Source: a bacterium (GTDB lineage Bacteria > Patescibacteriota > Minisyncoccia > Phycocordibacterales > Phycocordibacteraceae). From it: a stretch of DNA of 61,938 nucleotides. The notes under the pieces are model-generated. The model had not been told where the DNA came from and searched no databases. It was given only the letters and a program-made list of their open reading frames with translations. The translations under genes and the position numbers were made by a program. Shown piece by piece: positions 3,908 to 59,876 of this stretch (its first letter is position 1; every line of letters begins with the position of its first letter). The DNA is taken from assembly GCA_021802705.1 (NCBI GenBank), contig JAJZRL010000005.1, positions 1-61,938 of the forward strand. Reading direction: 5' to 3'.

Positions 3908-4699
3908 CTATTTATCGTAAACAGTAATCCCAGCAAAAAACCCATATTGGCTACCCAATATCGCAAATGTATCAAGATATCCGCTGCCAAGCAGAACGAT
4001 TGAGATCGAGACGAGCATCGCAAAGAGGCTTATTATCCGCACTACCAAAAAAGATGCCCTCGGACTTCCCTTCGCCTTCGGCTGTCGTTCCTGCGCGAAG
4101 GGTTCGTATGCCTGCATGCGCGCCTCGATGCGCTCGATAGGCTCTTCAAGCGGAGACTGGTGTATGGCGCGGATAGGCACGTACGTCTCTCCTTCTTCGG
4201 CATCATTCGACTCTTCTTCATAGAGAGGTTCCTCCGCAGTCTGCTCTTCCGAAGAGTCAGAAGAGAGAGACGGAGGATTGCTACCGAACAACGTCTGCCA
4301 CGTGTCGTGGAGCGGCGGTTCCGCATCGCGCCTGTCATTTAAAACTTCCTTGTCTTTCCCTTCTTCATCCGGCACCTCCTTTCGATTTTGTTCCGGCTCT
4401 TGATGCGAATGGATACGAGGAAGGACATCGACCGAAACCGCTTCGTAGCGGGGAGCTTCCCATGTCGACCTTTGGTTAGGAGGCGTCTCTTTTTTTATTT
4501 CCGATGGCACGATCCCATGACTTCCGAAGCGATGGTCCTGGAGCGCCGACTCGAGAACGTACCAGCTCCGCCCGACAAGACGCGCGGGAACCCTTCCTTC
4601 GCGGCAGAGCTGGCCGACATAGTCTTTCGCGTATCCCGTTATCTTCGCGGCTCGTTTCGACGATACGTATTTCTTGTCTTCGATGAGAAGCTCGTCCAT
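3908..4699 (-). CDS. HTH (excisionase/MerR-like HTH_17) DNA-binding protein with a C-terminal membrane anchor
   Basis: 263 aa. The N-terminus KRAAKITGYAKDYVGQLCREGRVPARLVGRSWYV resembles the HTH_17 fold. The middle is acidic and low-complexity. The C-terminus has a hydrophobic helix, FLVVRIISLFAMLVSISIVLLG. TATACT lies 7 nt upstream of the ATG. Confidence 0.55.
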   Translation of the reverse strand: MDELLIEDKKYVSSKRAAKITGYAKDYVGQLCREGRVPARLVGRSWYVLESALQDHRFGSHGIVPSEIKKETPPNQRSTWEAPRYEAVSVDVLPRIHSHQEPEQNRKEVPDEEGKDKEVLNDRRDAEPPLHDTWQTLFGSNPPSLSSDSSEEQTAEEPLYEEESNDAEEGETYVPIRAIHQSPLEEPIERIEARMQAYEPFAQERQPKAKGSPRASFLVVRIISLFAMLVSISIVLLGSGYLDTFAILGSQYGFFAGITVYDK

Positions 4700-4771
4700 C
4701 CCTTTCAGTATACGGTTTTCTCGTCACGGAAAAAAGAGCCTCTCGCGCAACCGAGGTGCATAAGCCGCTCC

Positions 4772-6211
4772 TTAGTCGCCGCTTCGTTCGTTTGAGATTT
4801 CTTTCCGGATCAGCTCCTTCAGGAGCGTCGGGTTACCCGCCCCTTTCGTGGCTTTCATGCATTTGCCAAGGAGATACTGCAACGCCGCTTCCTTTCCCGA
4901 ACGATACTCTTCGGCTGCTTTCGTCTCCTCGGCAAGAACGCTTCTGACGGTTCCCGCGAGCGCATCGGTGTCGTGCACCTGGAGAAGGCCGTGCTTTTGC
5001 GCGATGTCTTTCGGGTCGCCACCCTCTTCGACAAGGAGCGCGAGGACATCTTTCGCGCCGCGCGAAGAGAGTTCCCCCGCGCTTGCCATGCGTATGAGCG
5101 AAGCGAATGCCGATGGAACGAGCGCGTCATACGACTCGGACTTCCGCTTTGCAAAGATGCCGGCGAGATCCGAAACGAGATAATTTGCCGCGAGCGGGAC
5201 AAGCGCGCCGTCCTCGTCGAGCGAGCGAGCGAGCGCGTCAAAGAACGCCGCGCGTTCGGGAGTCGCGCTCAGGTATGCCGCGTCGTTTTCCTTAAGCGCG
5301 TAGGCGCGGACGTAGCGCGCGCGGCGCTCCCACGGAAGCTCCGGCAAGGACGCGCGGATCGCTTCGGGAGAAAAGTCAGGAATCTCGGAAAGGAAGAGCT
5401 TGGGCAGATCCGGCTCCGGGAAATAGCGGTAGTCGGCGCTCCCCTCTTTGAAACGCTGATGGAAGGTCTCCTGCTTCGCCTCGTTCCATCCGCGCGTCTC
5501 TTGTACGACCTTCCCGCCCGCTTCGATGAGCGCGGTCTGCCGCGCCGCCTCAAACGCGATCGCGCGTTCGACGGAACGGAAGGAGTTGAGGTTTTTCACT
5601 TCCACTTTCGTGCCGAATTTCCCTTCCTCATTTGAGACGGAAATGTTCGCTTCGATGCGCATCTCGCCCTTCTCAAGATTCGCTTCGCCGGCGCCGAGCG
5701 TCCGCAAGAGAAGCTGCAGCTCGCGCGCGAAACGTCCGGCCGTCTCCGCGTCGCGGATGACCGGCTCGGTAACAAGCTCCATGAGCGGGATACCGGCGCG
5801 ATTGAAATCGACAAGGCTCTTCCCATGCGCGTGGATCGAGCGGGCGGTGTCCTCTTCGAGGTGCACGCGCGTTATGGAAACGCCGGCGAGCTCTCCTCCG
5901 GAGACGAGAGGGTGCGCGTACTGGCTTATCTGGTACCCTTTCGGGATATCTGGATAGAAATAGCTCTTCCGGTCGAATTCGCTGAAATCCGCGAGCGTGC
6001 CGCCCACTGCCGTACCGACCCTCAGGATATGACGCACGGCTTCCCTGTTGATGGTCGGCAGCGTGCCGGGGTGTGCCATGCAAATCGGACAGATATTCAC
6101 GTTCGAACGCGTCTCGTCCGGATCATTCGCCGAGCTACAGAACATCTTTGTCCTGGTTTTGAGCTCGGCATGTATCTCAAGGCCGATGGTCAGACGATAG
6201 AGCGCAGCCAT
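4772..6211 (-). CDS. gatB: Asp/Glu-tRNA(Asn/Gln) amidotransferase subunit B
   Basis: 479 aa. LTIGLEIHAELKTRTKMFCS, NICPICMAHPGTLP and the GatB/YqeY-like C-terminal domain are classic GatB. Confidence 0.95.
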   Translation of the reverse strand: MAALYRLTIGLEIHAELKTRTKMFCSSANDPDETRSNVNICPICMAHPGTLPTINREAVRHILRVGTAVGGTLADFSEFDRKSYFYPDIPKGYQISQYAHPLVSGGELAGVSITRVHLEEDTARSIHAHGKSLVDFNRAGIPLMELVTEPVIRDAETAGRFARELQLLLRTLGAGEANLEKGEMRIEANISVSNEEGKFGTKVEVKNLNSFRSVERAIAFEAARQTALIEAGGKVVQETRGWNEAKQETFHQRFKEGSADYRYFPEPDLPKLFLSEIPDFSPEAIRASLPELPWERRARYVRAYALKENDAAYLSATPERAAFFDALARSLDEDGALVPLAANYLVSDLAGIFAKRKSESYDALVPSAFASLIRMASAGELSSRGAKDVLALLVEEGGDPKDIAQKHGLLQVHDTDALAGTVRSVLAEETKAAEEYRSGKEAALQYLLGKCMKATKGAGNPTLLKELIRKEISNERSGD

Positions 6212-6275
6212 ATATATAGGTATAGCTTATAGTGTGGAGCGGAAAATGCCTAGCGAAACCCCATATTCCTCCTGC

Positions 6276-9777: not shown

Positions 9778-9816
9778 CTGACGCACTATACCACCGTACC
9801 CTCGTTTGAGCTAAAT

Positions 9817-10157: not shown

Positions 10158-13100
10158 TTACTGCGAGTTCCACTTCGCGCGAGAGATCGGACCGAAGTAT
10201 CCGACGCTCGGTCTGACGCCGGTATCCCTCTGCCATGCGCCAACTGCCGCGCGCGTCTCGTCGCCGAAGTATCCAGTCGCGCCGGCCGCTATCGCATACC
10301 CCATCGCGATAAGCGATTGCTGAAGGCACCTCACTTCCTCGCCCCTCGATCCTATCGAAAGGTCGGTGGTAAAGACGCACGACGCGTGCGGGGGCGTGGT
10401 ATTCGCCGGAGTCGAGGTGCCGCCCAGAAGCGCAGCTTCGACTTGCGCGATCGTATCGGCGCTCGCGCCAAATGAAGAGAGGAGCGAGAGGAGCGATTCG
10501 ATCTGCGCATGCGAAAGCGGCGAGACGCTCGACGCGAGCGGAGCGGTCGTGCCCTGCGCGCCGGTCGTCGTGCTCGTCGTCAAAGCGACGGGAACGAGCG
10601 GCGGGAGCGACGGCGGCGGTTCTGAAACAGAAGCCGAGCCGCCGGTATACGAAACGACCGAGCTGCCGATGCTATTGCACGGGATAGTGAAGGAGTAGGT
10701 GTTCGAGTCGGTCGTCTGCCCGAGAACGTCGGTAGCCGCAACGTACCAGTTGTGCGAAGTATTGCAGGCGGGAGATTGCGTGAGGGTGAACGAGGTCGTC
10801 GTGCTCGCGAGCGACCCGCTCGCGGCGGTTCCGTCGAGATACAAAACGTAAGAGGAGAGGCCGCCCCACGAGTCGCTCGACGGATTCCACGAGAAAGAAG
10901 TGCTGTTCGTGATTGCCGTGTTGCTCGGAGAAACGAGCGAGAACGCGGCGGGAGCGTCGTTCGCGACGGTGAAAGTATGCGTCGTGTAGCCTTTGGTATA
11001 GGTGAAGGTGAGAGAACCGCTCGTATTCGTCGTGCTTGAGGCGAGATACGTCCCGTCAACCGCGATGCCGTATGTCGTGCTTGAGGCGAGGTCGCCCACC
11101 GTATGCACCGTCGAAGTGGCTATGGGGGACGACTCCGTCCAGACCTTCTTATAGTCGCCGCTCGTGTCCCACGTGGTGATGCCGATATCCATCCATTGCG
11201 CGTAGTTTCCGGCGCCGAAACCTCCGACCGGAGTAACCGTGAGCGCGGCGGTCGCGGCGCTCGACGTCGCGGTGGTATAGCGATACTTCCCGTTCGCGTA
11301 TATGCGGATATCGCCGGTGCGCTCGACGGGATCCGTCCCCATCATGTAGGGAGGCTGGTACTCGTATGGGCCGATGTCGGGCGTGCCGTAGATGGGGTTG
11401 CCGAGGATGTCGGTCGTACGTCCGGGCACGGATGTTCCCGCATCGATGTCGGGAGAGAGGTAATTGAGGGAGAAATCGTTTGCCGAAGGGTTCGAGAGGA
11501 GGGGGTTCACGTCTTCCTGGTTGTTCACGCCCTTGTAGGTGGTTTCCCAGGTGGTGTCGCCGGCGACGTCCCAGTTATTGTTCGACGCGGTAAAACCCGG
11601 AACGTTTGCAGGCGGGAGCGGGTATGGGAACTTGAAAGAGGAGCCGTTGTCCGCCACGATATTGTTCTTCACCTGCGCGCCCGGAGCCCCGAGAGATGTC
11701 GAGAAACCGGCACCGCCATTGCCGTATGAGAGGTTGTTATAGATCTTCGGGCTTTGCGGAAGCGACATGCTGATGCCGGTCGTGGTATTGTCGGCAGCGA
11801 TAGAGTTCTGCAGGGTATCGTAACCGTTCAGAGATATGCCCGCATAGTTGCCGTATGCTTCGACGCCGTTCATCGTCGAGTAACTTGACGGAAGGTTGAA
11901 TCCTGAAACGTTCGCATAGCGCGCGATGATGTTGTTGAAGACGTGATACCCGTCGCCGGATGTGTCATTGTCATACACTCCATAATTGCGCGTCCCCGCC
12001 TCGATATGGAGCGTCGAGATGTCTTCGCCGGATCCAAGGCGGTAGTAGAGGGTGCTCGTGGCGAAGTACCACGCCCCGGGGGGGAGAGTCGCCGCGCTCG
12101 CGCCCTCCGTGCGCGCCGTGAGGCTCGAGATAGTCGCTCCGGCCGCGAGCACGGTCGAGGTCGCCGTTACCGCCTTTTCATAGGTATTCGCATTGCCGCC
12201 GCTGTAGACGCTCCAGCCGCCGGACTCGTCAGTGCTTCCCCAGATCTCGGGCTTCTGGGTCGCATCGGCAGCTTCGAACGTGATAGGGAGCGAGGCGGTA
12301 CCGCTGTTGGTGATAGAAAGCGTCTCCCGATACGGGACGCCGCTATTCTTCACGATCTTGACCGTGTCCCCTGCCTCTACGGTCTCCCCCGCTTTCGCAA
12401 GCGTCGCCCAGGGTGCCGCTTGCGAACCGGGATTGTTGTCATTCCCCGCAACGTTGTCGACATAGAAAGTATAGGGGACGGCATAGCCGGGAACGACGTT
12501 CAGCGTGAACGTCGAGGTCGAAGTTGCAGTCGCGCCGTTGTTATCGACGGCCTTCACGTACCATGTGTGGGTACCCGCGGAAAGAGGGGTGGAGACTATC
12601 GTTGTCGTCGCGGAGATGTTATCGACGGCAAGAGAACCGTCGATGTAGAGCTCATACTTGCTGATGCCGTAATAATCCACCATGTCTTGCCAGGAGAACG
12701 TCGGCGTGGTGCTCGAGGCGATGGCGTTATCGGCGGGCGCGGTTATATCGAAAGGAAGATGCTTGACGATGACCATCTTCGGATCGCCGACGATGACCTC
12801 TTTCCAGTTCCACTCCGGAAACGCCATGCCGAAACTGTCGGCGAGATTATATCCGCTCGCGTAGCGCGGGAAGAGGGTAGCGGGGTTCGAGAGACCGTTC
12901 GTATACGGCTCACTCGTATACCCCGCTCCTCCCGTCATCCCCTCGGCGAGCCAGTCCGCGATAAGCGACTGACCGTAGGTCGCGGGAAGGTTGAAGGTGC
13001 GGCCGGATGTCGAGACGGCGGTATCGCCGATCGAACCGTTGATCCATGTGTTGTAGGGAATGGAGTTCGTCGTCGTCGCGTTGCCGTCGTTGCTTCCCCA

Positions 13101-13991
13101 GCTGTAGTAGCCGAGGACGTTGTCCTGGTAGGTGAGGTAGGTATTCGTGAGGTCGAGCTTGACGTTGAAGCCCATCGCATCGAGCGTGCTCGACGCGGAG
13201 ACCATCTCGCCGTTTACGAAATTGTAGCCGTTATTTGCGCTCGGCGGGCTATACCCTTTTCCGGGAGCCGTATCGAGTACGAAAGTTCCCTGTGTCGTGG
13301 TCGTCGAGATCGCCGAACGGTCGATCATGCTTTCCACGTCGGCGATCGTGTAACCGGTCAATCGCGTGACGATATAGAAGCCGTAGGTCACGCTCGAGAA
13401 GCTGCCGGACTGGTTGTAGTACGGGTTGTTAAGCGCGACGAACGACGGATTGAACGAGATATCAGAACTGTATTTGCCAAGTATCAAAGAAAGCGCCTGG
13501 TCGACCGATGGGCCGCCGCTCGGAATCACGTTCGGAATGGTGATGTCAAGCGGCACGCCTTTCGTCGTGATGATGTAATTGGTGCTTGAGGCGAGATTGT
13601 TCGTGGTGAGAAAGTTCTCTACGGGGGTCTGTATGTCGGTCTTGAAGGTGGTGGTGCTGATAGTCTCTACGGCGGGCGTATTGATATGGACGACGTGGGA
13701 AGCGGGGAAACTCCGGGCGGCGATGAAATAATTCGCGATGGTCGTCGATGTCGCCGACGCGTCATTCACCACGAGGATGGTGTCGTTGTAATTATAGTAA
13801 CTGTCTGCGTGGGCATGCGGTACGGAAAATAAAAAAAGCGGGGCGAAGAACCCGGCAAAAGAGACGGCGGCTAGGAAGAGGGGATGACGTATGAAAAGGG
13901 AACGAATGTCGTATCGAAATGGGATTGAATCTTGCGTGTCGTTCATTGATGGCTTCTGTGAAAACGTCGTGGTGTTGGGGCATACTAGCAC
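10158..13991 (-). CDS. Giant multidomain cell-surface protein (N-terminal anchor/signal, Ig/Fn3-like segments, parallel beta-helix repeats, C-terminal peptidoglycan-binding domain)
   Basis: 1277 aa. N-terminal hydrophobic LFLAAVSFAGFFAPLFLFSVPHAHA. Beta-helix-like NN-repeats (NNIIARYANVSGFN, NNLSYGNGGAGF, NNIVADNGSS). C-terminal PG_binding_1-like LSIGSRGEEVRCLQQSLIAMGY...GYFGDETRAAVGAWQ. The true start may be the internal ATG at 13946. Confidence 0.8.
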   Translation of the reverse strand: MLVCPNTTTFSQKPSMNDTQDSIPFRYDIRSLFIRHPLFLAAVSFAGFFAPLFLFSVPHAHADSYYNYNDTILVVNDASATSTTIANYFIAARSFPASHVVHINTPAVETISTTTFKTDIQTPVENFLTTNNLASSTNYIITTKGVPLDITIPNVIPSGGPSVDQALSLILGKYSSDISFNPSFVALNNPYYNQSGSFSSVTYGFYIVTRLTGYTIADVESMIDRSAISTTTTQGTFVLDTAPGKGYSPPSANNGYNFVNGEMVSASSTLDAMGFNVKLDLTNTYLTYQDNVLGYYSWGSNDGNATTTNSIPYNTWINGSIGDTAVSTSGRTFNLPATYGQSLIADWLAEGMTGGAGYTSEPYTNGLSNPATLFPRYASGYNLADSFGMAFPEWNWKEVIVGDPKMVIVKHLPFDITAPADNAIASSTTPTFSWQDMVDYYGISKYELYIDGSLAVDNISATTTIVSTPLSAGTHTWYVKAVDNNGATATSTSTFTLNVVPGYAVPYTFYVDNVAGNDNNPGSQAAPWATLAKAGETVEAGDTVKIVKNSGVPYRETLSITNSGTASLPITFEAADATQKPEIWGSTDESGGWSVYSGGNANTYEKAVTATSTVLAAGATISSLTARTEGASAATLPPGAWYFATSTLYYRLGSGEDISTLHIEAGTRNYGVYDNDTSGDGYHVFNNIIARYANVSGFNLPSSYSTMNGVEAYGNYAGISLNGYDTLQNSIAADNTTTGISMSLPQSPKIYNNLSYGNGGAGFSTSLGAPGAQVKNNIVADNGSSFKFPYPLPPANVPGFTASNNNWDVAGDTTWETTYKGVNNQEDVNPLLSNPSANDFSLNYLSPDIDAGTSVPGRTTDILGNPIYGTPDIGPYEYQPPYMMGTDPVERTGDIRIYANGKYRYTTATSSAATAALTVTPVGGFGAGNYAQWMDIGITTWDTSGDYKKVWTESSPIATSTVHTVGDLASSTTYGIAVDGTYLASSTTNTSGSLTFTYTKGYTTHTFTVANDAPAAFSLVSPSNTAITNSTSFSWNPSSDSWGGLSSYVLYLDGTAASGSLASTTTSFTLTQSPACNTSHNWYVAATDVLGQTTDSNTYSFTIPCNSIGSSVVSYTGGSASVSEPPPSLPPLVPVALTTSTTTGAQGTTAPLASSVSPLSHAQIESLLSLLSSFGASADTIAQVEAALLGGTSTPANTTPPHASCVFTTDLSIGSRGEEVRCLQQSLIAMGYAIAAGATGYFGDETRAAVGAWQRDTGVRPSVGYFGPISRAKWNSQ

Positions 13992-14054: not shown

Positions 14055-15071
14055 TCAGCCGAAGGTCTCCACTTCCCTCTCGAGAACGATACCCGTTGCA
14101 TCGTAGACGCGGCGCGCGACCTCCTGCGCGAGCGCATCGACTTGCGAGGCCGTCGCGCCCTCACGCGCGACGATGACGAGCGGCTGCCGTTCATACAGTC
14201 GCACCGGCCCGCTCGCGTACCCCTTGAGCGAAAGGGCGCGGTCGAGAAGCCACGCGAGCGACACCTTCGCCATGCCGTCTCCTTGGGGAAACACGGGCAT
14301 CTCAGGATATCGCGCGCGAAGCGTTGCGACTGAAGCATCCGAGATGACAGGGTTCTTAAAGAAAGAGCCCGCGGTTCCCTCTTCGGAGGGGTCCGGAAGC
14401 TTCTGAGAGCGTATCGCCCGCACGGCTGCCGCGATCTCGGGCGGGGTCGAAAGAGGAGTGCCGGCCTCACGCGCGCGAGCGAGATCCGGGTATCCGACGC
14501 GCGGCGTTCCGAGCGTCGTGAGGCGCAAAGCGACACGCACGATGACGTGCGCTCTGCTCTCTTTGAAAAAACTCGAGCGGTACGCGAATGCGGATTCGGC
14601 GCGCGTGATGCGAACGAGCGCGCCGGTCGTGGTGTCGATGCTGTCGGCGTACTCAAAGACATCCGCAAGCTCCGCGCCATACGCGCCGATATTCTGCACC
14701 GTCGCACCGCCGACAGTCCCGGGGATGCCGGCGAGGTTCTCGATGCCGGAAAGCCCGCGCGAGACGGCAGTGTCGACAACGGCATCCCACCTGACACCCG
14801 CGCCGGCGATGAGCCGGTAAGAGCCGTCATTCCCGGGCTCGAAAACGATGTCGCGCGACGCTACCTTGAGCACGACGCCTTCGACGCCTTCATCTTTCAC
14901 GAGCACGTTGCTGCCTGCGCCGAGCGGATAGAGCGGCAGAGCGCGGCGCTTGGCGATGCCAAGCGCCGCGCGTATGTCTTCTTCGGTGTCCGCCTCTATA
15001 AAAACACGAGCCGGCCCGCCGATATGAAATGTCGTGTGGGGCGCAAGCGGAATACCGCTCCTTACGATCAT
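14055..15071 (-). CDS. murB: UDP-N-acetylenolpyruvoylglucosamine reductase
   Basis: 338 aa. LAPHTTFHIGGPARVFIEA and PLGAGSNVLVKDEG (FAD-binding) plus a MurB C-terminal domain. Confidence 0.9.
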   Translation of the reverse strand: MIVRSGIPLAPHTTFHIGGPARVFIEADTEEDIRAALGIAKRRALPLYPLGAGSNVLVKDEGVEGVVLKVASRDIVFEPGNDGSYRLIAGAGVRWDAVVDTAVSRGLSGIENLAGIPGTVGGATVQNIGAYGAELADVFEYADSIDTTTGALVRITRAESAFAYRSSFFKESRAHVIVRVALRLTTLGTPRVGYPDLARAREAGTPLSTPPEIAAAVRAIRSQKLPDPSEEGTAGSFFKNPVISDASVATLRARYPEMPVFPQGDGMAKVSLAWLLDRALSLKGYASGPVRLYERQPLVIVAREGATASQVDALAQEVARRVYDATGIVLEREVETFG

Positions 15072-17248: not shown

Positions 17249-17276
17249 AGTGAGAACTACTATAGCACATGCCCTA

Positions 17277-17334: not shown

Positions 17335-18177
17335 CTAGAACCTCCAGCTGAAGAGACCCCACTGGCCCTGCTCTTTCTGGGCGAGGCTTTCAAGATTGAC
17401 CTGCTGCGTTTCCATCGCCGCTATCTGCGCGGAAAGCGTCGCTTTGACGTCCGCCGATACGTTCGCCTGATTGAGAAGCTGCATGAGCGTCTGGATGCGC
17501 TGCTGGTTTTGCGTAACTTCATCTTTGATAGCAGCGGCTGCCGCGCTGTCGCCGCCAAAGAAAAGCCGCGTCCAGAATCCGCGCGCCTCAATCTGCGCTT
17601 CGGCATCTGTCGTCGTCGCGACTGAAGCGTCTACCTGCTGCGCGATCTGCGACACCTCCTGTCCGATACCACCGAGAAGCGGTTTCGCGGCAAGGAGCGC
17701 GTGCACCGCGAGACGCACGTCGTTCGCGTTTTTCACGATGCCCCTATCAGCGGCCGTCGTGCTCGCCTCCTCCTGATCAAGCTCCTGCTTGCGTGTATCA
17801 ATCATCTGCTTGAGCTCTGCGAGCGAAAAGGCTTCCGTCGTCGTGCTCTCAAGCCCGAGGAAGAGCGGCGAGTTCGCGTGTTCCATCGCCCGCTCGGCGG
17901 CGTGCTGCCTTATCTCCATGAGCGCCCGCTCGGTAGAGGTCGCATGGTCGCTCCCCCGCCCTTCCTGAGCGCGCCCTTCTCCCGAGGCGCTTCCGCCAGC
18001 CCCCATCTCCACCATCATGCTTGTCGAGGCGTTCGCGTTTTCTCCCTGCGTATCCATCTGCGCGCCCATGGTCGCTCCGACTGACACGCCGCTATCAGCG
18101 TGCGCAACCGCCATCGGAACACCTCCCGTGGCAAGCGCCAGTACCGCAGTCCCTGCTGTATAAAGATATTTCTTCAT
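17335..18177 (-). CDS. Secreted helical/coiled-coil hypothetical protein
   Basis: 280 aa. Signal-like MKKYLYTAGTAVLALATGGVPMAVAHA. The remainder is Ala/Gln/Glu-rich and helical. No family recognised. Confidence 0.55.
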   Translation of the reverse strand: MKKYLYTAGTAVLALATGGVPMAVAHADSGVSVGATMGAQMDTQGENANASTSMMVEMGAGGSASGEGRAQEGRGSDHATSTERALMEIRQHAAERAMEHANSPLFLGLESTTTEAFSLAELKQMIDTRKQELDQEEASTTAADRGIVKNANDVRLAVHALLAAKPLLGGIGQEVSQIAQQVDASVATTTDAEAQIEARGFWTRLFFGGDSAAAAAIKDEVTQNQQRIQTLMQLLNQANVSADVKATLSAQIAAMETQQVNLESLAQKEQGQWGLFSWRF

Positions 18178-18265: not shown

Positions 18266-20428
18266 CTACCGCCCTGAAATCTGCCGTATGAGTTGCTGCG
18301 CCTGCGCCGCAGCAGCAGGGTCGTTCCGCGCTATTTCTGATAGCGTCCGTACCGCGCCAGGTATGTCGCCGGTCGCGTTTTGCGACGCAGCGAGGGAAAA
18401 CCAACCTTGGATATCATCCGGATGGAGCACGACATAGCGCTGCCAGAGCGTTTCCACCGCATGGTAATCGCCTCGCGCGGCGTAGGCATTGATAATACCT
18501 GCGTCGGGTATATCGGATCTGCCGTACCGAGCCGTCAATACCTGCCGTGCAAGCGCGTCGTCGCCGGCATAAATGGCGGCACGCGCATAATATTTCACCG
18601 CGTCTTCGAATTCCGGTTCGATGAGATACGCGGTACGCGCATCGGCAAGTGCCGCCTGGTACTCGCCGAGCGCCAGCTCTTCATCCACGATGCCGAAATA
18701 AATGAACTGCTTTTGCGGCGCGAGTCTGCGACCCTGCTCATACGCTTCGAGCGCTGCGCGATGTTCTCCCTGGGCATCAAGAAGCTGTCCGAGGAGCACG
18801 TACTCCCGAACCCGCGAAGGATGTGCGGCGATGGTTGCGCGGAGCGCTCCGATAGCGCCTTTCATTATTTCGCGCTTTGCCGAATCCGGCAGGTCGGGCG
18901 TCGAAGTCGCCATGAGGGCAAATTTCGCAAACGCGTCGGGAATCTCTGAGGCATCCGGGCGAATACTGATCGCCTTTGCGAATACCGCGATCTGTGTGAC
19001 AGGATCGCCTCCTTCGTTTGAGGCGGCCTGGGCCGTTAAAAGAAGAGCCTCGCCGGTCGCAAACACAAGCGACACAAGCGCGGTTATCCCCACTACCGCC
19101 GTGCCAAGAAGGATCGCCCATCCCCATCCCGCTAGAGGCGCCGGCTGCATCGCCTCTTCGGAGAAACCGCGGCTCCGCCGTTCGAGATATGCGAAGAGCG
19201 TGACCAAGAGCAGCAGCCCGCCAAGCGTATCAAACGCCACAAGATCGGCGACGAAATATCCTACAAGCCCGGCGCTCAGCACGAGGCGTTCCGCCTGCGG
19301 CATCGCCTTCCCCCGCCATAAGGTCACCGATGCCGCGAAGTAGAGTCCGCAGTACGCGAGCAACCCGAGGATGCCGGCAGCCGTGAGCCATTCGAGGAGC
19401 ACGTTATGCGGCTTATCAAACCAGAGCTCGACCGTATGAAACTCCTCGGCGGCATACCGATCGAACACGAAATCGAAATTCGACTGGCCATAGCCGAAGA
19501 GCGGACGTGCCGCAAACCCGGCAAGCGCCGCGCGCCAAACAAAAATTCGCGCCGCAAACGACGAATAGTCTGAAAAAGAGAGATGATCATATCGCGACAA
19601 GATGGGATTGCGGGCGATTAACGAACTGCCGCTTAGAAGAAACGGGAGCGCCGCGCCGATGCAACAGAGAAGCGCAATAAGGAGCGCCGCCACGCGCACC
19701 CGCCGCCCGCGAATCAACGCATATCCGGCGATACCAACGAAGACTCCCGCGAGCAAACCGAGGAGCGCGCCCCGGGTGCCGGTCGCATAGAGGGCACCCG
19801 CTTCGAATAACCCGCTCGCAAGATACCAGAAACGCGCCCCTCGTTTCGTACCGCCGACATATAAGACGCCGGCAATCGTGATCGCGAGCAGCAAATAGCT
19901 CGCCAAAAATGTCGGGCTTCCGAGGAACGAACCGGGCCGCGTCGAATCGACGGTCATCGCGACGAGTCCTGCCGACTGTGCGAGTGCGCCGAGCGCTACT
20001 ACGACCGCTACGACGTTTGAAACCGTAAGGTAACGGCGCCAATCACTCGAGGTGCGCAGCAGCGACACGGCAATCACGAAGTACGCCGCGAGATGCAAGT
20101 AGAGCACGTATCCATCCATGCGCTCAAGCGAGCCGAAAATACTCCGGTACGGATCGACGCCGAACGCATCGGCAATCCCTACGACTACGAGGAAGGCGGC
20201 GAGAGCTCCCGAGAGAAGGCTCCAACGCGGGCGATAGGATGAGTCGATGAGCGCGAGCGCTACCCAGCCGACCTCAAGCACCTCGATTATCGCCTCGAAC
20301 CAGAGCGTCTTTTCGGTAATAAACGGGAAATAGAGCACGCCGACAAATACAACCGGCGAGAGCGCAACGGCATACAAGCCGATCCGAATCATTGCGACCA
20401 GCAGGTTTCGCGCGTCACGCGTACTCAT
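18266..20428 (-). CDS. Second O-antigen ligase/Wzy_C-TPR fusion (paralogue of 15068..17248)
   Basis: 720 aa with the same architecture and recognisably similar motifs (FPFITEK/FPFITGK, WFDKPHNVLLEWL/WFDRAHNAFIDWL). Confidence 0.75.
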   Translation of the reverse strand: MSTRDARNLLVAMIRIGLYAVALSPVVFVGVLYFPFITEKTLWFEAIIEVLEVGWVALALIDSSYRPRWSLLSGALAAFLVVVGIADAFGVDPYRSIFGSLERMDGYVLYLHLAAYFVIAVSLLRTSSDWRRYLTVSNVVAVVVALGALAQSAGLVAMTVDSTRPGSFLGSPTFLASYLLLAITIAGVLYVGGTKRGARFWYLASGLFEAGALYATGTRGALLGLLAGVFVGIAGYALIRGRRVRVAALLIALLCCIGAALPFLLSGSSLIARNPILSRYDHLSFSDYSSFAARIFVWRAALAGFAARPLFGYGQSNFDFVFDRYAAEEFHTVELWFDKPHNVLLEWLTAAGILGLLAYCGLYFAASVTLWRGKAMPQAERLVLSAGLVGYFVADLVAFDTLGGLLLLVTLFAYLERRSRGFSEEAMQPAPLAGWGWAILLGTAVVGITALVSLVFATGEALLLTAQAASNEGGDPVTQIAVFAKAISIRPDASEIPDAFAKFALMATSTPDLPDSAKREIMKGAIGALRATIAAHPSRVREYVLLGQLLDAQGEHRAALEAYEQGRRLAPQKQFIYFGIVDEELALGEYQAALADARTAYLIEPEFEDAVKYYARAAIYAGDDALARQVLTARYGRSDIPDAGIINAYAARGDYHAVETLWQRYVVLHPDDIQGWFSLAASQNATGDIPGAVRTLSEIARNDPAAAAQAQQLIRQISGR

Positions 20429-21629: not shown

Positions 21630-21711
21630 GATTGAACGTACAGTATCATGAAACTTTTCGCGCTTGCCGCTCAAATGGTACGATGAGCAGAACGCCACAT
21701 CTTATACGCGT

Positions 21712-40592: not shown

Positions 40593-40604
40593 GTGAGAAG
40601 TATA

Positions 40605-41392: not shown

Positions 41393-42220
41393 ATGTTTAC
41401 GTGCAAAAGGCCGGACGTCAGTATCCTGGCGTTAAACCCCGAGGACGGGAAGAAGCTGTACGGACTTGCAAACTGGTCCCTGCAGCCGATACAAACGCAA
41501 CAAGACGTATACATTCACCAGCGCCTCACGAAAGCGCTCCGTACCACATTTGAAGGCATGGAAACGTACCGGGTATACGCCCCGCACGTCGTTCCGGCAA
41601 GCGCCGAGATCGTCAACACGACGACGCTCAAAAAATGCATTCGGCTCGGCGGTGATGTTTCCCTGTACCGGAACAACGAAGTGCCTGCGGACGGCGTATT
41701 CCTCAAAAAAGGAGAAGGCTTCGCGATGAGCGCCGCCGGCTGTCCGATCATTATCGCGACCGCCTACGAGCATATGATCGTCGCTCATGCCGGACGGGAT
41801 TCGCTCATCGAGCGCAGCGCCGTCATGGGTGAGCCGGCGCGCAAGCACCTCAGCATCGTCAATGCCATCATCGAAGCCTTCAAAGAGCGCGGCGCGCGGA
41901 CCCACGAGATCGTCATGTGCATGCAATTTTCGATTCCGGTAGGAAAATTCGAACACCGGTTCGATCACCCGCGGCACGGCGCATACAACAAGGCGCTCGC
42001 CGCGTTCATCGACGAACGGTGGAAAAATTGCATGATCCGCGAGAACGGCAACGCCATGTTCCTCAGTCTCGAATCGCTCTTCGTGGAACAGGCGCGCCAA
42101 GCCGGCGTTTCTCACGTATGGGCTGCCGTCTCGCTCGAAAGGAACTACGGTCTTGCGCACACGCATGACGGCGAGGATCCCGGCAGACGGAACCTTATTT
42201 TCGTCAAGCGCAATGCTTGA
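41393..42220 (+). CDS. Hypothetical protein, possibly a divergent YfiH/DUF152 (PgeF-like) fold
   Basis: 275 aa from the ATG preceded by aaaggagaacgag. SAAGCPIIIA and VAHAGRDS loosely resemble the Cys and His motifs of DUF152. The call is weak. Confidence 0.35.
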   Translation: MFTCKRPDVSILALNPEDGKKLYGLANWSLQPIQTQQDVYIHQRLTKALRTTFEGMETYRVYAPHVVPASAEIVNTTTLKKCIRLGGDVSLYRNNEVPADGVFLKKGEGFAMSAAGCPIIIATAYEHMIVAHAGRDSLIERSAVMGEPARKHLSIVNAIIEAFKERGARTHEIVMCMQFSIPVGKFEHRFDHPRHGAYNKALAAFIDERWKNCMIRENGNAMFLSLESLFVEQARQAGVSHVWAAVSLERNYGLAHTHDGEDPGRRNLIFVKRNA

Positions 42221-42248
42221 CCCGTGCGAAATTATCGCGAGCGCATGA

Positions 42249-42280
42249 GGCGACCCTTCCCGGGCCGCCTTTTTATTTTT
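42249..42280 (+). terminator. Rho-independent terminator after 41393..42220
   Basis: ggcgaccc-ttccc-gggccgcc followed by tttttattttt. Confidence 0.55.
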
Positions 42281-42310
42281 CTGACCCTCTCGCCTCGGCA
42301 ACAGGGTCCG

Positions 42311-44910: not shown

Positions 44911-44975
44911 CCTCAAATCCTACTTGCTCCTTGCGCGGAGTGCAAAGCAGGGGAATCGCTCTCAAACAAGAGCAA

Positions 44976-45491: not shown

Positions 45492-45563
45492 GAGGAAAGT
45501 ATAGCCGAACGCAAGCTCCCCCGTGAGACGAGGGTGGGTATAACTTACTGGGCGGGAGAACGG

Positions 45564-45636
45564 TGCGCGCGCTAGGGATCGAACCTAGGACCTTCCGCGT
45601 ATCAGGCGGGCGCTCTACCAGCTGAGCTACGCGCGC
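45564..45636 (-). tRNA. tRNA-Ile (anticodon GAU)
   Basis: The minus strand reads GCGCGCG-TA-GCTCAGCTGGTAGAGC-G-CCCGC-CTGATAC-GCGGA-AGGTC-CTAGG-TTCGATC-CCTAG-CGCGCGC-A. All arms fold, with one C-A mismatch in the anticodon stem. CCA is not fully encoded. Confidence 0.85.
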
Positions 45637-46003
45637 AAACAGCGCAAGAAACGGAAACTGAAAAATCACCTGCCGGCTGTGGCCGGTTTTTTGATTCTAC
45701 CAGAAGCCGTTTAAACTGTCGCTCTTTGTCGGAAAGCGGCAGGCGCCCTAAGGCGCCTGCCGCTTTCCGTGATTCTGAGAAAGAAGTCTGCTCTCTTTTG
45801 TTCCGCCTATCCTGTTCCATTCGAGAGCTCATATGCGGCTCTCGAACGCCACCGGGTTACGTTATCCGGCTTCCGGGTACCGTTTAAAGACGAGTACCAT
45901 CTCTTCATTCCCCGAAGGAAACGATCGACGTGATACTCCTTTCGGGAGTATCGGTTCCAATTGGATATGTTCCACGAACAGCTTCCGCTACCCGTGCCTT
46001 GTT

Positions 46004-46771
46004 CTGTTTTCCCCTCGTATCGCTACGAGGCATGGACTATATCATCATCCGCTCCTCAAACAGCGCTCGCTTCATCGGATGCCATGACCCGACAACGCGT
46101 GCGAAGTCTGAATGCGATGCGGTGCTTATGAAACAACGCCAGTAATTTGGATCGACACGACGACTCGGATTATGGAGTGCGCCGGTTTTGATACCAAGTG
46201 ACTGAAGGATTTCTTTAAGCATCTGCATCTTCTCTCTGTCTTTTTGAACAAGCTGTATATAGAAGAGGGCATCCTGACTGTGCGGTATACCTCCTTCTGC
46301 ATCGAAGAAACCTCGGATATAAGCCGCTTTTTCTTCACTTGTTTTGAGAGACAGAGGATTGAATCGGAAATCGAGAAATGCTGCGGTAGTTTCAAGATCG
46401 TATACATCACGTTTACCTTCTTGATACATCCACGACCGGTGGCCGAGATGCATGAGAAGATTTTTAAGAATCGTTAGCCATTCGGTTCCTTTTTGAGAGA
46501 ATCGAACACGATTCTTGCGACGATACGCATCATGAAGCGCGCCTTGCAGATATGCTTTGATTTCAGATTTCGATTTGAACGGCGATCGGCGTGTAGTCTC
46601 TGAGGGGTCAATTACGACTTCCCTGCTGATTTTCTGCACCCGACGCATTGTCACGGGCATAATGTTTCCATTATACCGCGTAGCGCGGGATTCTCAGGTC
46701 TTCCAGCATATAGCCAATTTTATTTTTCGAGGGATTACTCCCAAGCGTCGCAACACCGGCAGTCTGCCGGT
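46004..46771 (-). mobile_element. 16S insertion 3 (768 nt, group I-like) between AAGUCGU and AACAAGG
   Basis: The exon ends in U and the intron ends in G. Intron GCGAC about 20 nt in can pair with exon GUCGU with a terminal U-G. It contains a LAGLIDADG ORF. Confidence 0.7.
46037..46660 (-). CDS. LAGLIDADG homing endonuclease (two-motif type, degenerate first motif)
   Basis: 207 aa. IRGFFDAEGG (LAGLIDADG-like) and an upstream YLQGALHDAY. It lies wholly inside insertion 3. Confidence 0.75.
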   Translation of the reverse strand: MPVTMRRVQKISREVVIDPSETTRRSPFKSKSEIKAYLQGALHDAYRRKNRVRFSQKGTEWLTILKNLLMHLGHRSWMYQEGKRDVYDLETTAAFLDFRFNPLSLKTSEEKAAYIRGFFDAEGGIPHSQDALFYIQLVQKDREKMQMLKEILQSLGIKTGALHNPSRRVDPNYWRCFISTASHSDFARVVGSWHPMKRALFEERMMI

Positions 46772-46858
46772 ACGACTTAGTCCTTGTCACTGAATTTGCC
46801 GTAGTCCTGCGCGAGGCAGACCTTCGGGCACCCCCAGCTCCCTTGACTTGACGGGCGG

Positions 46859-47694
46859 ATTGCAATAGGCCGAGACGCCTTTGCGTTCCCACGTAGCGAA
46901 CGGATTTCCCGTACTACGCGAGTCCGACAGTTTTTTGATTCATGCGCAACTTGAGTTCACGAATTTCTCCAACCCCTTCTGTAGTCAAATGCTTCCGCTC
47001 TTTTACAAGCTTGGCGATCTTACAGAAGATATCGAAGCTCGCGCTCTTCGTTGCGCTGCGCAACGGATGTTTCCTGAAGAACGGGATAACAATATCTTGT
47101 ATATCCCGTTCTGCACTTACGGTATAGCGATAACACTGACAATGGTTTGCGCGTTGTTCTTTTTGGAAGTACACCGCACCACACCCTATCGTGTTCCGTA
47201 CTTTCTCAAGCAAGTCTTTATCACGTTCTTGCATTTTCAGATGAAAATGCAATTGAACGCGATGTCCTGCTCGATAACGGTCAGAAGCTCCCATGTTCAC
47301 ATAGAAACATCCTTCGCCGTCCGTAAGTCCGACAACATATTCGTTGCTAACCGTCGGAAGTGTCCTTTCCATACGTCCAGTATAACTTGACGTATGGTAC
47401 TACGACACAGCTGACTTCTCATAGGTGTTCATATCTCGATCCCTATGAGATCTCCTTGGGTCATTATCCATTCCGTTCCTTGCATCCGCTCAATGCGATT
47501 GTGAAGCGCTTCCCCATTACTCACCAGAATGGGTCGCGCATACGCTCTGTATCTCTACAGGAGGGCTGCTTTTTGCTACTAGATCTCTCCGCCGACAACC
47601 TCGCGGCCTGCCGACTGTTCGTTCGCTACGCGTGCTTTCGCACGGGTCCGATTTTAACGGACTGGATTGAATAACTACCAAGCACATTTCTGAA
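46859..47694 (-). mobile_element. 16S insertion 2 (836 nt) within the decoding-centre sequence GUACUCA/CCGCCCGUC
   Basis: The flanks reconstitute UGUACUCACCGCCCGUCA. The boundaries do not obey the simple U / terminal-G rule. It contains a LAGLIDADG ORF. Confidence 0.6.
46914..47372 (-). CDS. LAGLIDADG homing endonuclease (single-motif type)
   Basis: 152 aa. YVVGLTDGEGCFYV motif. It lies inside insertion 2. Confidence 0.85.
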   Translation of the reverse strand: MERTLPTVSNEYVVGLTDGEGCFYVNMGASDRYRAGHRVQLHFHLKMQERDKDLLEKVRNTIGCGAVYFQKEQRANHCQCYRYTVSAERDIQDIVIPFFRKHPLRSATKSASFDIFCKIAKLVKERKHLTTEGVGEIRELKLRMNQKTVGLA

Positions 47695-48274
47695 TGAGTA
47701 CAAGACTCGAGAACGTATTCACCCCGGTTTGGCTGACCCGGGATTACTAGCGATTCCGGCTTCATGAGGTCGGTTGCAGACCTCAATCCGTACTGGGGTC
47801 GGTTTTATAGGGATTGGCTCCGCCTTGCGGCATTGCAACCCGTTGTACCGACCATTGTATTATGCGTGCAGCCCAAGGTATCAGAGGGACATGCTGATCT
47901 GGCGTCATCCCCACCTTCCTCTCCCGTGAGGGAGCAGTCTCGCCTGGCCATATAGGCAACAGGCAACGGGGGTTGCGTTCGTTACCCCACTGAAGGGAAC
48001 AGTTCAAACCACGAACTGACGACGACCATGCATCACCTGCCCAACACCCTCGAAGGCTCCTCACCTTTCGGCGAGGATGCAGTTGGGTTTCTAACCTTGG
48101 TAAGGTTCTTCGTTTGTCGACGAATTAAGCCGCATAATCCACCGCTTGTGCGAGTCCCCGTCTATTCCTTTGAGTTTTAATCTTGCGATCGTACTACCCA
48201 GGCGGCTCGCTTACCGCGTTAGCTTAGCCTCACAGAGGGTCGATACTCCGTAAAGCGAGCGAGCAACGTTGAGG

Positions 48275-48308
<34 letters not shown>

Positions 48309-48735
48309 ACCCTGGCTTTCGTGTGTGAGCGTCAGGAACGTACCAGTGCACTGCCTTCGCCTTTGGTGTTCCCCATGATATCAACGGATTTCACCCCTCC
48401 ACCATGAGTTCCGTGCACCTCTTACGCCCTCGAGCCATACCGTTTCCTCCGCTAGCCGCAGGTTAAGCCCACGGATTTCACAAAAGACTAATATGGCCGC
48501 CTCGACACCCTTTACGCCCAATGATTCCGGGTAATGCTTGGGGCCTCTGTATTACCGCTCCTGCTGGCACAGAGTTAGGAGCCCCTTATTCATCGGGTAC
48601 CGTCAATAAACTTCGTCCCCGATAAAAGATGTTTACGTACCGAAGCACTTCATCCATCACGCGGCGTCGCTCCGTCAGGCTTTCGCCCATTGCGGAATAT
48701 TCTCGTCTGCAGCCTCCCGTAGGAGTATGGGCCGT

Positions 48736-49436
48736 CGTTTATTCCATAATTTCTTATGGCACAGACTATACTTTCACCCTCGTTCGCGCGAGGGGCTTGC
48801 GTCTTACAGAATCCGAAGATTCTGTCTTCATCCCGGTTTTCTCCGGGATTCCAGTCGTTACGGGGTCAAACACTCGTATTTCGCGCTTTCCTCCCGTAGA
48901 GGAGTTTAGGCTGCGAATTTTCTGCACTAATGACAGAATACGAATATACGCTCCTTCAGACAGCGTGCTTGGTTTGTGTTTCTCATTTACGCTCATCCTT
49001 TTCAATACTTCAAGAGCCAGGTTTGCCTGGTCTTTCTTTATGAGAAGGAATGGCACGAGACGCGCGAGCACCGCTTTCACTTGGCTTCGTTCTTGGACAA
49101 CCAACTCTGCGAGATTTTTGCGCTTATCGGTTCGGATGACCCCGAAACTTCCAAGCGCTTCTCGCACCAATCTCAATTTACCTATATGCCGCGCATGTTG
49201 GGTGAAATTCACCTTGATGCGCACACGATACGGGAACCGTTTGCTGTGATAACGCTCAAGCGTTGCCACAACAGAACCGTCTCCGTCCAAAAATCCAGCC
49301 AAATATTCGTCTGATGGATAGTGTCGACTTCCCACGGTATTGCCTTTGATGGGTACCATTATACACCCATCAGTCAGGTTCCACCGTTATGAGCAAGATT
49401 TATCATTGGGGATTACTCCCCAAGGAGACAACTTTT
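48736..49436 (-). mobile_element. 16S insertion 1 (701 nt, group I-like) between ACUGAGAU and ACGGCCCAUACUCC
   Basis: The exon ends in U and the intron ends in G. Intron GUCUC (nt 8-12) pairs with exon GAGAU with a terminal U-G. An S-element-like AAAGUAUAGUCUGUGC lies near the 3' end. It contains a LAGLIDADG ORF. Confidence 0.75.
48766..49359 (-). CDS. LAGLIDADG homing endonuclease (single-motif type)
   Basis: 197 aa. YLAGFLDGDGSV motif. It lies inside insertion 1. Confidence 0.85.
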   Translation of the reverse strand: MVPIKGNTVGSRHYPSDEYLAGFLDGDGSVVATLERYHSKRFPYRVRIKVNFTQHARHIGKLRLVREALGSFGVIRTDKRKNLAELVVQERSQVKAVLARLVPFLLIKKDQANLALEVLKRMSVNEKHKPSTLSEGAYIRILSLVQKIRSLNSSTGGKREIRVFDPVTTGIPEKTGMKTESSDSVRRKPLARTRVKV

Positions 49437-49846
49437 ATCTCAGTCCCATCGGTGGGGATCAGGCTCTCACCCCCCCTAAGCGTCGTAGCCTTGGTAAGCC
49501 GTTACCTTACCAACTAGCTGATACTGCGCAGGCAACTCCCGAAGCGAAAAACCTTTACCCTTGCGGGACTATCGGGGATTACCCCGTCTTTCGACGAGCT
49601 ATACCCGACTTCGGGGGATCTACCTACGTGTTACTACCTCGTTTGCCGGTTGTCCTTGCGGACCCCCTTGACTTGCATGACTTATCCACGCCGCCAGCAT
49701 TCACCCTGAGCTAGGATCAAACTCTCATTAAGAATAGGCGGAACAAAAGAATTCATACTTCATTATTTCTCATTCACGTACTTGCACGTATTCGATTTTC
49801 AAAGGTCAAAAGAAACCCCGTCCCGTTACAGCGGGACAGTACCGCT

Positions 49847-55309: not shown

Positions 55310-55385
55310 GAGTATAGATGAAGTTCGGGAAAAACGAAACTCTTGCGCTCCACGCTTATCCGTTGCGATATAACCACAGCCCTGA

Positions 55386-56723: not shown

Positions 56724-56769
56724 GATTACGGAATACTATACCGCGGAAATATGTTGTACAGTTGCGCGT

Positions 56770-59057: not shown

Positions 59058-59058
59058 A

Positions 59059-59829
59059 TCAGGAGGGCGACGGGAGCGGTATGACCGGTATGACCTCTAC
59101 CGAAACGGGAGTCTCGGAAAACGGGCTGTTCCACGTGAAGATACCGGTTGCGCTGCCTTGCGATGGAATGACCGGCACGATTGTTTGCGATGCCGCGATG
59201 ATGTTTCCGCTTACGCCATGCACGAAGACGATCGCGCGCACGTTCGTCAGGTCGGCGACGCTCGGGTTCATGAAGACCGCTTCGACGCGCGGTGCAGACG
59301 GAGATCCGCCGATACTCGTCTTCGTCACGCTCGGTATGACGCGCGGATCGGTCATCATGGCAAACCACCGCGGAGACGATGACGCAATATCGAGAAAGGC
59401 GCTCGTGACCGGCTCTCCGTAGAAGACTCCCGGGACATAGACCGGCACGGTCGCACCCGGGGGCAGATCAAGAGTGCCCGGTACCTCCTTAAGGAGAGCC
59501 TCTCCGGCGCCATAGAGCATGATGGTGAAAGGGATATTCTGCGCTGCTGCGTCCGCATTCTTATTTTCAACCGACGCGATGACATCGGTGCGTCCGGAAC
59601 CGTCCGAAAGCGCCTGCGTAAACAAAACGGTCGGCGGCTGCTCTTGCGCGGTACAGAGATACGGACACGGGCCGCCGCAATCGATACCCGCCTCTCCCTG
59701 GTTTTGGATGTGGTCGGTGCATGACGGAGCACGATAGAAAAGCAAAGAAAACACGAAGGATGAAAACGCAATGACGATGAGGCCCAGTATGACCAGGATT
59801 ACGAGCCTCCTTCTTGCCGCCCATGACAT
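59059..59829 (-). CDS. Membrane-anchored protein with an N-terminal CxD-x9-GIDCGGPCPYLC motif
   Basis: Start at MSWAARRRLVILVILGLIVIAF (ATG 59829, with TATACT 6 nt upstream). The longer track ORF runs into the tRNA-like element. Confidence 0.55.
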   Translation of the reverse strand: MSWAARRRLVILVILGLIVIAFSSFVFSLLFYRAPSCTDHIQNQGEAGIDCGGPCPYLCTAQEQPPTVLFTQALSDGSGRTDVIASVENKNADAAAQNIPFTIMLYGAGEALLKEVPGTLDLPPGATVPVYVPGVFYGEPVTSAFLDIASSSPRWFAMMTDPRVIPSVTKTSIGGSPSAPRVEAVFMNPSVADLTNVRAIVFVHGVSGNIIAASQTIVPVIPSQGSATGIFTWNSPFSETPVSVEVIPVIPLPSPS

Positions 59830-59876
59830 GCCTGTAGTATACAGGTGCGCGGTCAGCCGTAAAAATGGACAGGGTG

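Follow-up and report, generated by a model that had tools for sequence, protein, structure and literature searches.

Introduction

In Deinococcus-Thermus, a "-10 motif adjacent to ORFs" is found at approximately 30% of open reading frames (ORFs) (Zhong et al. 2025, PMC12340547), and 167 of the 262 genes of D. deserti with mapped transcription start sites are leaderless (cited in PMC6028130). The gene-start class that GeneMarkS-2 terms group C consists mainly of Actinobacteria such as M. tuberculosis (Lomsadze et al. 2018, PMC6028130; Cortes et al. 2013, PMC3898074) and includes Deinococcus-Thermus; it has a promoter box 6-8 nt from the start of operon-first genes, and 25-50% of its operons are predicted to be leaderless (PMC6028130). 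Ribosomes are able to initiate on a 5'-terminal AUG without a Shine-Dalgarno (SD) sequence (reviewed in PMC9031893). Here we describe gene starts of a similar kind in a 61,938-nt stretch of bacterial DNA (contig JAJZRL010000005.1 of assembly GCA_021802705.1; hereafter the window), in which a hexamer of the type TATACT or TATAGT recurs a few nucleotides before the ATG of genes that lead transcription units. An earlier note on this DNA had listed ten such hexamers, had predicted from their spacing of 6-10 nt that the mRNAs are leaderless or have leaders of 1-4 nt, and had remarked on a near absence of SD sequences.

As in Deinococcus-Thermus, a Pribnow-type -10 hexamer lies a few nucleotides before the starts of leading genes and does so for a large share of genes, here 55-58% of leading genes. 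Deinococcus-Thermus, however, retains the anti-SD sequence and has a ribosome-binding site (RBS) motif alongside the -10 motif, whereas the present lineage shows no SD signal and has no CCUCC in its 16S rRNA. The Deinococcus cases are also backed by transcripts and reporters, whereas the present case is known from sequence alone. With group C, the lineage studied here shares a -10 box (TANNNT) at approximately 6-10 nt before operon-first genes and its absence before internal genes. It differs in that the internal and leadered genes of group C use SD sites at the same distance, and in that GTG is essentially never found at box-adjacent starts in our sample. The phyla that PMC6028130 reports for group C do not include this one. 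In the Bacteroidetes-type group B most genes likewise have no SD pairing, but in group B an A-rich motif stands before every gene, internal genes among them, and the anti-SD is retained (PMC6028130), whereas here the motif is a -10 box found before leading genes only.

Loss of the anti-SD has been reported in Parcubacteria. Tsurumaki et al. 2022 (PMC9297842) detected a CCUCC-type anti-SD motif in only 48% of Parcubacteria. The "SD-scarce" organisms of class iv in another study (PLoS One 2024, PMC10783764) include Campbellbacteria and Wolfebacteria. The present lineage belongs to the same clade and shows the same loss of CCUCC at the 3' end of its 16S rRNA. Both papers report the anti-SD loss; they describe no substitute for the SD, no -10 box at the start codon and no leaderless genes. 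The ribosomal-protein losses of the candidate phyla radiation (CPR) resemble those of the mitoribosome (Tsurumaki et al., PMC9297842). In mammalian mitochondria (for example PMC12265510), mRNAs likewise have no 5' leaders and initiation takes place on a 5'-terminal AUG; those mRNAs are processed from polycistronic precursors, whereas here a promoter stands at each gene. This resemblance is convergent, with no evolutionary link. As a further parallel, mammalian mitochondrial ribosomes are reduced, and their small-subunit rRNA has no anti-SD. Our literature search, which combined leaderless genes with CPR, Patescibacteria, Parcubacteria or Saccharibacteria and was of incomplete coverage, found no relevant paper. 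Leaderless architecture and anti-SD loss are each known, and we found no paper joining the two.

Start-adjacent -10 boxes in the window and its relatives

Start-adjacent -10 boxes were found at 19 of approximately 29 leading genes of the window, or about two thirds. Ten were those of the earlier note, whose hexamer/ATG pairs matched in coordinates and in their 6-10 nt spacings when 45 nt upstream of each start were re-read and the distances recomputed; nine more came from a scan of every ORF start (ATG 21629, 37319, 41285, 44910, 46660, 47372, 55303 and 56723 on the minus strand, and 56770 on the plus strand).

A scan for SecA yielded 80 loci for comparison, of which close relatives contributed 30, other Paceibacteria 21 and non-CPR bacteria 29; the non-CPR loci served as controls. 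Genes in all loci were called with a self-trained codon model, the first ATG being taken as the start. A gene was classed as leading if its upstream neighbor was divergent or the gap was at least 40 nt, and all others were classed as internal. This rule and these classes were adopted because histograms over every in-frame start candidate were noisy, owing to codon periodicity, and were usable for strict TATANT only.

Among 173 leading genes of close relatives, the numbers with TANNNT ending at 6, 7, 8, 9 and 10 nt from the start were 28, 16, 27, 15 and 9 (55% in all), compared to approximately 2-3 genes per position farther upstream. A test beyond the window was what the earlier note had called for. 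The 164 leading genes of other Paceibacteria gave counts of 28, 17 and 17 at 6-8 nt over a background of approximately 6, and there was no TANNNT peak near the start in 241 leading genes of the non-CPR controls. Before internal genes of the lineage, TANNNT was only faint and near background. SD words at 5-10 nt were essentially absent from the 173 leading genes of close relatives and formed no peak in the 164 of other Paceibacteria. They were found in 18-38 genes per position in the controls, so the pipeline was able to detect SD sequences where they are present.

Our own expectation-maximization motif search, run without a prior pattern on the 40 nt upstream of leading genes, returned the extended -10 consensus TGnTATAnT. 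In close relatives plus the window it took the form TGgTATAcTg, present in 58% of 195 leading genes and ending 5-9 nt from the ATG; other Paceibacteria gave aTGnTATAAT, and the non-CPR controls gave AAAGGAGG. When flanks were anchored on the hexamer, 95 of 166 sites had G at -2 and 70 of 166 had T at -3, the two together being the TG of an extended -10 element. T was also enriched at -23 and -22, and a weak TTG at -23 to -21 corresponds to the -35 position with a 17-nt spacer.

The box was conserved before orthologous genes. In the window, the extended -10 element TGgTATAGT (hexamer 9785-9790, minus strand) lies 7 nt before the secA ATG at 9777, and 39 of 42 secA orthologues had TANNNT at 5-10 nt, mostly as TGnTATAnT at 8 nt, while their flanks diverged. 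TATACT at 4707-4712 (minus) lies 7 nt before ATG 4699, the start of a gene for an HTH-domain protein (3908-4699; Pfam HTH_17 from residue 13), and TANNNT was found at 5-10 nt in 30 of 31 orthologues. Another extended element, TGcTATAGT (hexamer 17259-17264, minus), precedes ATG 17248 of a Wzy_C/TPR membrane protein by 10 nt; 22 of 25 orthologues had the box, typically at that same distance. For gatB (ATG 6211), which has a weak TATACC at 6219-6224 (minus) 7 nt before its start, only 17 of 33 orthologues had TANNNT at 5-10 nt. An internal murB-like gene (ATG 15071, joined by an ATGA overlap) had the box in only 2 of 36 orthologues. The box pattern belongs to the clade as a whole and is not peculiar to the window.

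In many relatives (loci L001-L023), the hairpin and T-run terminator of the gene upstream of secA, such as aaaatcccgctccggcgggatttttcttttt, abuts the TGnTATAnT box, and terminator, promoter and start codon of secA fit within approximately 50 nt.

These observations could have a different meaning if the promoters are real but the true start codons lie farther downstream, in which case the mRNAs would have normal leaders and the adjacency to ATG would be an artifact. Start codons in metagenome-assembled genomes (MAGs) are unverified, our caller relied on the first-ATG rule, and homology lends no support to the ORFs at ATG 40592 and 59829. However, in the box-defined proteins Pfam domains start within residues 1-14 (for example position 1 of Obg at residue 4, with TP_methylase, Epimerase and GatB_N as further cases), so the true starts cannot lie far downstream. 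Alignments of orthologues began at residue 1, the ATG keeping its place across as many as 42 genomes, and a start-agnostic histogram over all in-frame start codons still peaked at 6-10 nt. A strong box preceded 108 of 595 in-frame ATG candidates compared to 1 of 594 GTG and 2 of 289 TTG candidates. A requirement for a 5'-terminal AUG as start codon would lead one to expect such an association with ATG only, which is unexpected if the codon is irrelevant. No SD sequence was present downstream or elsewhere. Taken together, these data make misassigned starts an improbable explanation.

Shine-Dalgarno words and the 16S rRNA tail

The near absence of SD sequences was borne out by counting. One of the words GGAG, GAGG or AGGA occurred 4-18 nt upstream at 3 of 45 curated starts of the window, and AGGAG preceded ATG 41393 (plus strand) and no other curated start, in agreement with the earlier note. 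This scarcity is accounted for by the 16S rRNA of the window, which has no anti-SD. After its last intron the gene reads AACAAGGCACGGGUAGCGGAAGCUGUUCGUGGAACAUAUCCAAUUGG, with helix 45 intact, and it ends in GGAACAUAUCCAAUU in place of GGAUCACCUCCUUA, the CCUCC core of the anti-SD having become UAUCC. The tail at 45954-45973 (minus), GGAACAUAUCCAAUUGGAAC, stands at the position of GGAUCACCUCCUUA without CCUCC; given as GGAACAUAUCC, it likewise contains no anti-SD. With no CCUCC in the 16S rRNA, SD pairing is not available at all.

Near-identical tails, one or two inserted bases apart, were found in five related metagenome contigs (L095, L132, L138, L172 and L200). None of the 80 secA loci contained 16S or 23S sequence. 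A metagenome scan with a 16S helix-44 pattern gave 120 loci, among them 53 16S genes that share the Parcubacteria-type helix 45 of the window and lack CCUCC, and 55 loci from other bacteria with the canonical tail, which were reused as an internal control. The tails without an anti-SD varied among relatives (ACAUAUCC, UUAAUUCC, AUAAUUCA, UUAUUUCA and GUAUGUCA). In the analysis of flanking genes, in which the classification counts 54 anti-SD-less loci, TANNNT peaked on the contigs with such 16S genes, reaching 25 of 156 genes at 6 nt, and no SD peak stood out, since no position had SD words in more than 5 of 156 genes. Where the tail was canonical, there was an SD peak and no TANNNT peak.

A box at SD spacing next to an altered 16S tail raises the question of whether the box is itself a replacement RBS, an AU-rich "new SD" that pairs with the changed tail. 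The tail is now AU-rich, and the box spacing of 6-10 nt equals that of an SD, so that position alone cannot tell the two apart; the same confusion was pointed out for M. tuberculosis (PMC6028130). On direct inspection, however, no more than 3 contiguous pairs could be formed between the tail GGAACAUAUCCAAUU and UAUACU or UAUAGU. The tails differ among relatives while the box consensus stays constant at TATAnT, and the TG extension and the TTG at -35 spacing would be meaningless for pairing with rRNA. The box is also missing before internal genes, which would need an RBS too. The idea was rejected on this poor complementarity, the promoter-specific flanks and the restriction to leading genes, and we consider it very improbable.

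The Parcubacteria tails without an anti-SD (45954-45973, minus, in the window; loci L084-L200) follow the pattern GGAWYAWW-YYCA-loop-TGRR and can form a hairpin of 4-5 bp. The stems vary in a compensatory way (TTCA/TGAA, TCCA/TGGA, GTCA/TGAC, CTCA/TGAG and ACCA/TGGT). Because a MAFFT alignment of the tails was gapless and left hairpins with different loop lengths out of register, a per-sequence test was used instead; it found such a hairpin in 36 of 40 distinct tails compared to 18 ± 2.8 in shuffles, a result that is only indicative because the tails are related.

TATACT occurred 12 times in the window, counting both strands, and in 7 cases the hexamer is followed at 6-9 nt by an ATG that opens 76 codons or more. 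At a random position the probability of such an ATG is 0.036, which gives a binomial P of 5e-8; for TATANT, 12 of 48 abutted such an ATG (P = 9e-8). That TA-rich hexamers lie near starts merely by composition, in the short AT-rich spacers of a 58% G+C genome, is excluded on these positional tests: the spacers are indeed short and AT-richer than the genes, and TANNNT is a loose pattern, but its enrichment is confined to 6-10 nt and is at background by 12-17 nt, most copies of TATACT in the window abut an ATG, the motif carries a conserved TG flank, and the same peak is missing in low-GC control loci.

Boxes before the remaining genes

Three further extended elements of the window lie at listed starts. 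TGtTAGATT (hexamer 33057-33062, plus) ends 7 nt before ATG 33070, and TGcTATACT (hexamer 40291-40296, minus) ends 9 nt before ATG 40281 of a TraG/VirD4-like ATPase. The promoter TTGTCA-17-TGaTATACT (-10 hexamer 40599-40604, minus) precedes ATG 40592 of a 76-aa ORF by 6 nt and scored 10 of 12 with TG in an independent two-hexamer scan. TAGAAT at 31692-31697 (minus), 8 nt before ATG 31683, heads a glycosyltransferase operon of four genes joined by ATGA overlaps, and itself overlaps the stop of the upstream ORF 31695-32138. TATACT is found 6 nt before ATG 45491 of a PrcB_C protein (45498-45503, minus) and 6 nt before ATG 59829 of a 256-aa ORF downstream of the 5S rRNA (59836-59841, minus).

Of the boxes added by our scan, TGaTACTGT (hexamer 21640-21645, minus) lies 10 nt before ATG 21629 of a PMT_2-like protein. 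Three hexamers on the minus strand each lie 6 nt before a start supported by a domain: TACTCT (37326-37331) before ATG 37319 of an epimerase-glycosyltransferase fusion (Epimerase position 1 at residue 7), TAGAGT (41292-41297) before ATG 41285 of a TP_methylase protein (profile position 1 at residue 3), and TAGGAT (44917-44922) before the murD-like ATG 44910 (MurD-like_N position 1 at residue 10). For gatB, the corresponding figure is GatB_N position 2 at residue 8. TATACT at 55311-55316 (minus) precedes the secD ATG at 55303 by 7 nt. Two divergent boxes precede neighboring genes: TATAGT at 56735-56740 (minus), 11 nt before ATG 56723 of a Bac_transf sugar transferase, and TACAGT at 56757-56762 (plus), 7 nt before ATG 56770 of a GT4 glycosyltransferase, whose domain begins at approximately residue 18 if ATG 56770 is the start. 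The last two boxes, TATAAT at 46670-46675 (minus, 9 nt before ATG 46660) and TATACT at 47379-47384 (minus, 6 nt before ATG 47372), belong to LAGLIDADG ORFs, the first within a group I intron of the 16S gene and the second within an insertion of approximately 800 nt in that gene.

TGn preceded the hexamer in 6 of the 19 sites. Only two of the boxes in 38-47.5 kb were recovered by the two-hexamer promoter scan, because most have no -35 element. That is consistent with extended -10 promoters, although the other boxes are not independently confirmed by it. Pfam gave no match for the ORFs at ATG 40592, 59829 and 41393, nor for 41432-42301.

Operon-internal and probably leadered genes

Internal genes of the window were joined by ATGA-type overlaps, as the earlier note had it, in 10 of 16 cases. 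In ORF coordinates these 4-nt stop/start overlaps are at 28380-28383 (minus strand), 15068-15071, 23659-23662, 24705-24708, 25838-25841, 26593-26596, 29435-29438, 30568-30571, 35214-35217 and 43600-43603. The other internal genes had gaps of 1-7 nt or 14-nt overlaps. ATGA overlaps made up 29% of same-strand junctions in the window, 13% in close relatives and 8% in controls. We had considered ATGA overlaps as a hallmark of the lineage and rejected this, since 13% in relatives compared to 8% in controls is a modest trend only.

Approximately one third of the leading genes had their best -10 box 16-40 nt upstream, for example those at ATG 13946, 18177, 27270, 52404 and 41393, and these genes are probably leadered, judging from promoter distance. 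TGcTAGTAT lies 31 nt upstream of ATG 13946, and the best box of ATG 52404 lies 23 nt upstream. ATG 41393 (plus; region 41324-41393) is approximately 40 nt downstream of a promoter-like site, TTGACT-16-TAGTAT; its gene is probably leadered, and the AGGAG before it may be fortuitous given a 16S rRNA without an anti-SD. An ORF on the opposite strand, 41432-42301, competes in this region. In several relatives, the gene at ATG 18177 (17335-18177, minus) has its TATACT-type box 30-40 nt upstream, and the leader is AU-rich and contains no SD. We read it as a conserved leadered mRNA in a lineage without an anti-SD.

Organism, rRNA genes and other features of the window

The organism is placed by its sequence as a Kaiserbacteria-like member of Patescibacteria (Parcubacteria/Paceibacteria). 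Its SecA shares 76-84% identity with proteins encoded by MAGs that carry the label Candidatus Kaiserbacteria, Paceibacterota or Patescibacteria.

Rfam identified a 16S gene and a tRNA-Ile, together with a 23S-5S pair at a distance of 11 kb from the 16S gene. The 16S gene (45954-49724, minus) has at least 4 exons, at approximately 49724-49247, 48849-47690, 46858-46771 and 46005-45954. Its insertions are at approximately 49247-48849, at E. coli position approximately 1390 (about 800 nt, 47690-46860), and at approximately 46778-46013, where a group I intron follows AAGUCGUA. Insertions of this kind in 16S genes are a hallmark of CPR bacteria. The first Rfam match (47656-48849) would make the gene 1194 nt long with 204 positions deleted; this was rejected, as the 5' part is at 49247-49724. 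Two of the insertions hold LAGLIDADG homing-endonuclease ORFs on the rRNA strand (46037-46660 and 46914-47372, both minus), and these ORFs, each having its own box, may give rise to leaderless mRNAs of their own from within the rRNA gene.

The 16S gene and the 23S-5S pair are not linked; the pair lies 11 kb off, upstream of the 16S gene on the same strand. The 23S fragment (60296-61938, minus) covers Rfam positions 1868-2925, or 1058 positions, over 1643 nt, which leaves an insertion of approximately 585 nt (an intron or intervening sequence). The tRNA-Ile(GAU) gene (45562-45636) is approximately 320 nt downstream of the 16S 3' end, and a promoter-like site, GCGACA-17-TGnTAGAAT (45694-45722, minus), ends 57 nt before it.

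A long cluster at 20000-28000 and 28000-37400 holds glycosyltransferase, polysaccharide-synthesis, methyltransferase, deacetylase and O-antigen-ligase-like genes, mostly chained by ATGA overlaps. Its 20-28 kb part has a G+C content of 52% compared to 58-60%, which suggests a horizontally acquired surface-polysaccharide island. Two very large ORFs, 2-3598 (minus; more than 1190 aa) and 10158-13946 (minus; 1262 aa), have a GC1 of approximately 0.49 and a GC2 of approximately 0.53, compared to 0.63 and 0.45 in other genes, and probably encode repetitive surface proteins. No N-terminus of an orthologue of the 10158-13946 ORF aligned in the relatives.

Discussion

The motif, its position and conservation, its specificity for ATG, the absence of SD words and the loss of the anti-SD are direct observations. 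The explanation that fits them best, to which we give a probability of approximately 85%, is that sigma-70-type promoters, mostly of the extended -10 form, abut the ATG, so that the mRNAs would be leaderless or have leaders of 1-4 nt. This was the prediction of the earlier note, and every sequence-based test applied here supported it. The TATAnT box would be the -10 element of such a promoter, mostly as TGnTATAnT, with a -35 element that is weak or missing. Bacterial RNA polymerase initiates 6-8 nt downstream of the -10 hexamer. Transcription would then begin at the A of the ATG itself or 1-4 nt upstream: with a spacing of 6-7 nt the A of the ATG would be +1, and with 8-11 nt the leader would be 1-5 nt. 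Such an mRNA has no room for an RBS and would depend on leaderless translation, in which the 5'-terminal AUG is recognized by a ribosome that carries fMet-tRNA. Internal genes would be reached by termination and reinitiation across ATGA overlaps or gaps of 1-7 nt. We infer the transcription start points and the mode of ribosome recruitment from these features.

Several points weigh against this reading. The start sites are derived from promoter geometry only, and spacings of 8-11 nt (ATG 17248, 21629, 40281, 46660 and 56723) imply leaders of 1-5 nt, which are not strictly leaderless. The gatB box of the earlier note kept its position and spacing but is weak as a -10 element, since it ends in C and not in T, and the final T is the most conserved position of the -10 hexamer. 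Two of the box-linked ORFs (ATG 40592 and 59829) are without homology support. Genes of the relatives were called with a simple caller of our own and the first-ATG rule, the errors of which dilute the signal and could also bias it. Finally, the third of leading genes with boxes 16-40 nt upstream means that a second, SD-independent route for leadered mRNAs must exist.

The gene-start architecture described here is already known, and the lineage is new for it; what is added is that the architecture coincides with the complete loss of the SD/anti-SD system, for which it probably compensates. We lean toward a broader view, in which a large branch of Parcubacteria (Kaiserbacteria and other Paceibacteria) gave up the SD/anti-SD system: more than half of its transcription units would be leaderless through extended -10 promoters that abut the ATG, internal genes would depend on stop/start overlaps, and the freed 16S tail would have been remodelled into an AU-rich, hairpin-capable segment with compensatory changes in its stem. 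If true, this would be an independently evolved, mitochondrion-like initiation regime in bacteria, and it would explain the published, unexplained anti-SD loss.

There are practical consequences for these genomes. Gene callers tuned to SD sequences will misplace starts in them, their promoters can be read directly from sequence, and heterologous expression of CPR genes should retain the native ATG at the 5' end. The finding widens the range of heavily leaderless bacteria past Actinobacteria and Deinococcus-Thermus and offers a bacterial parallel to mitochondrial initiation. Two papers left open how mRNAs are recognized in Parcubacteria that lack the anti-SD, and the window together with approximately 90 related loci offers a concrete, testable answer.

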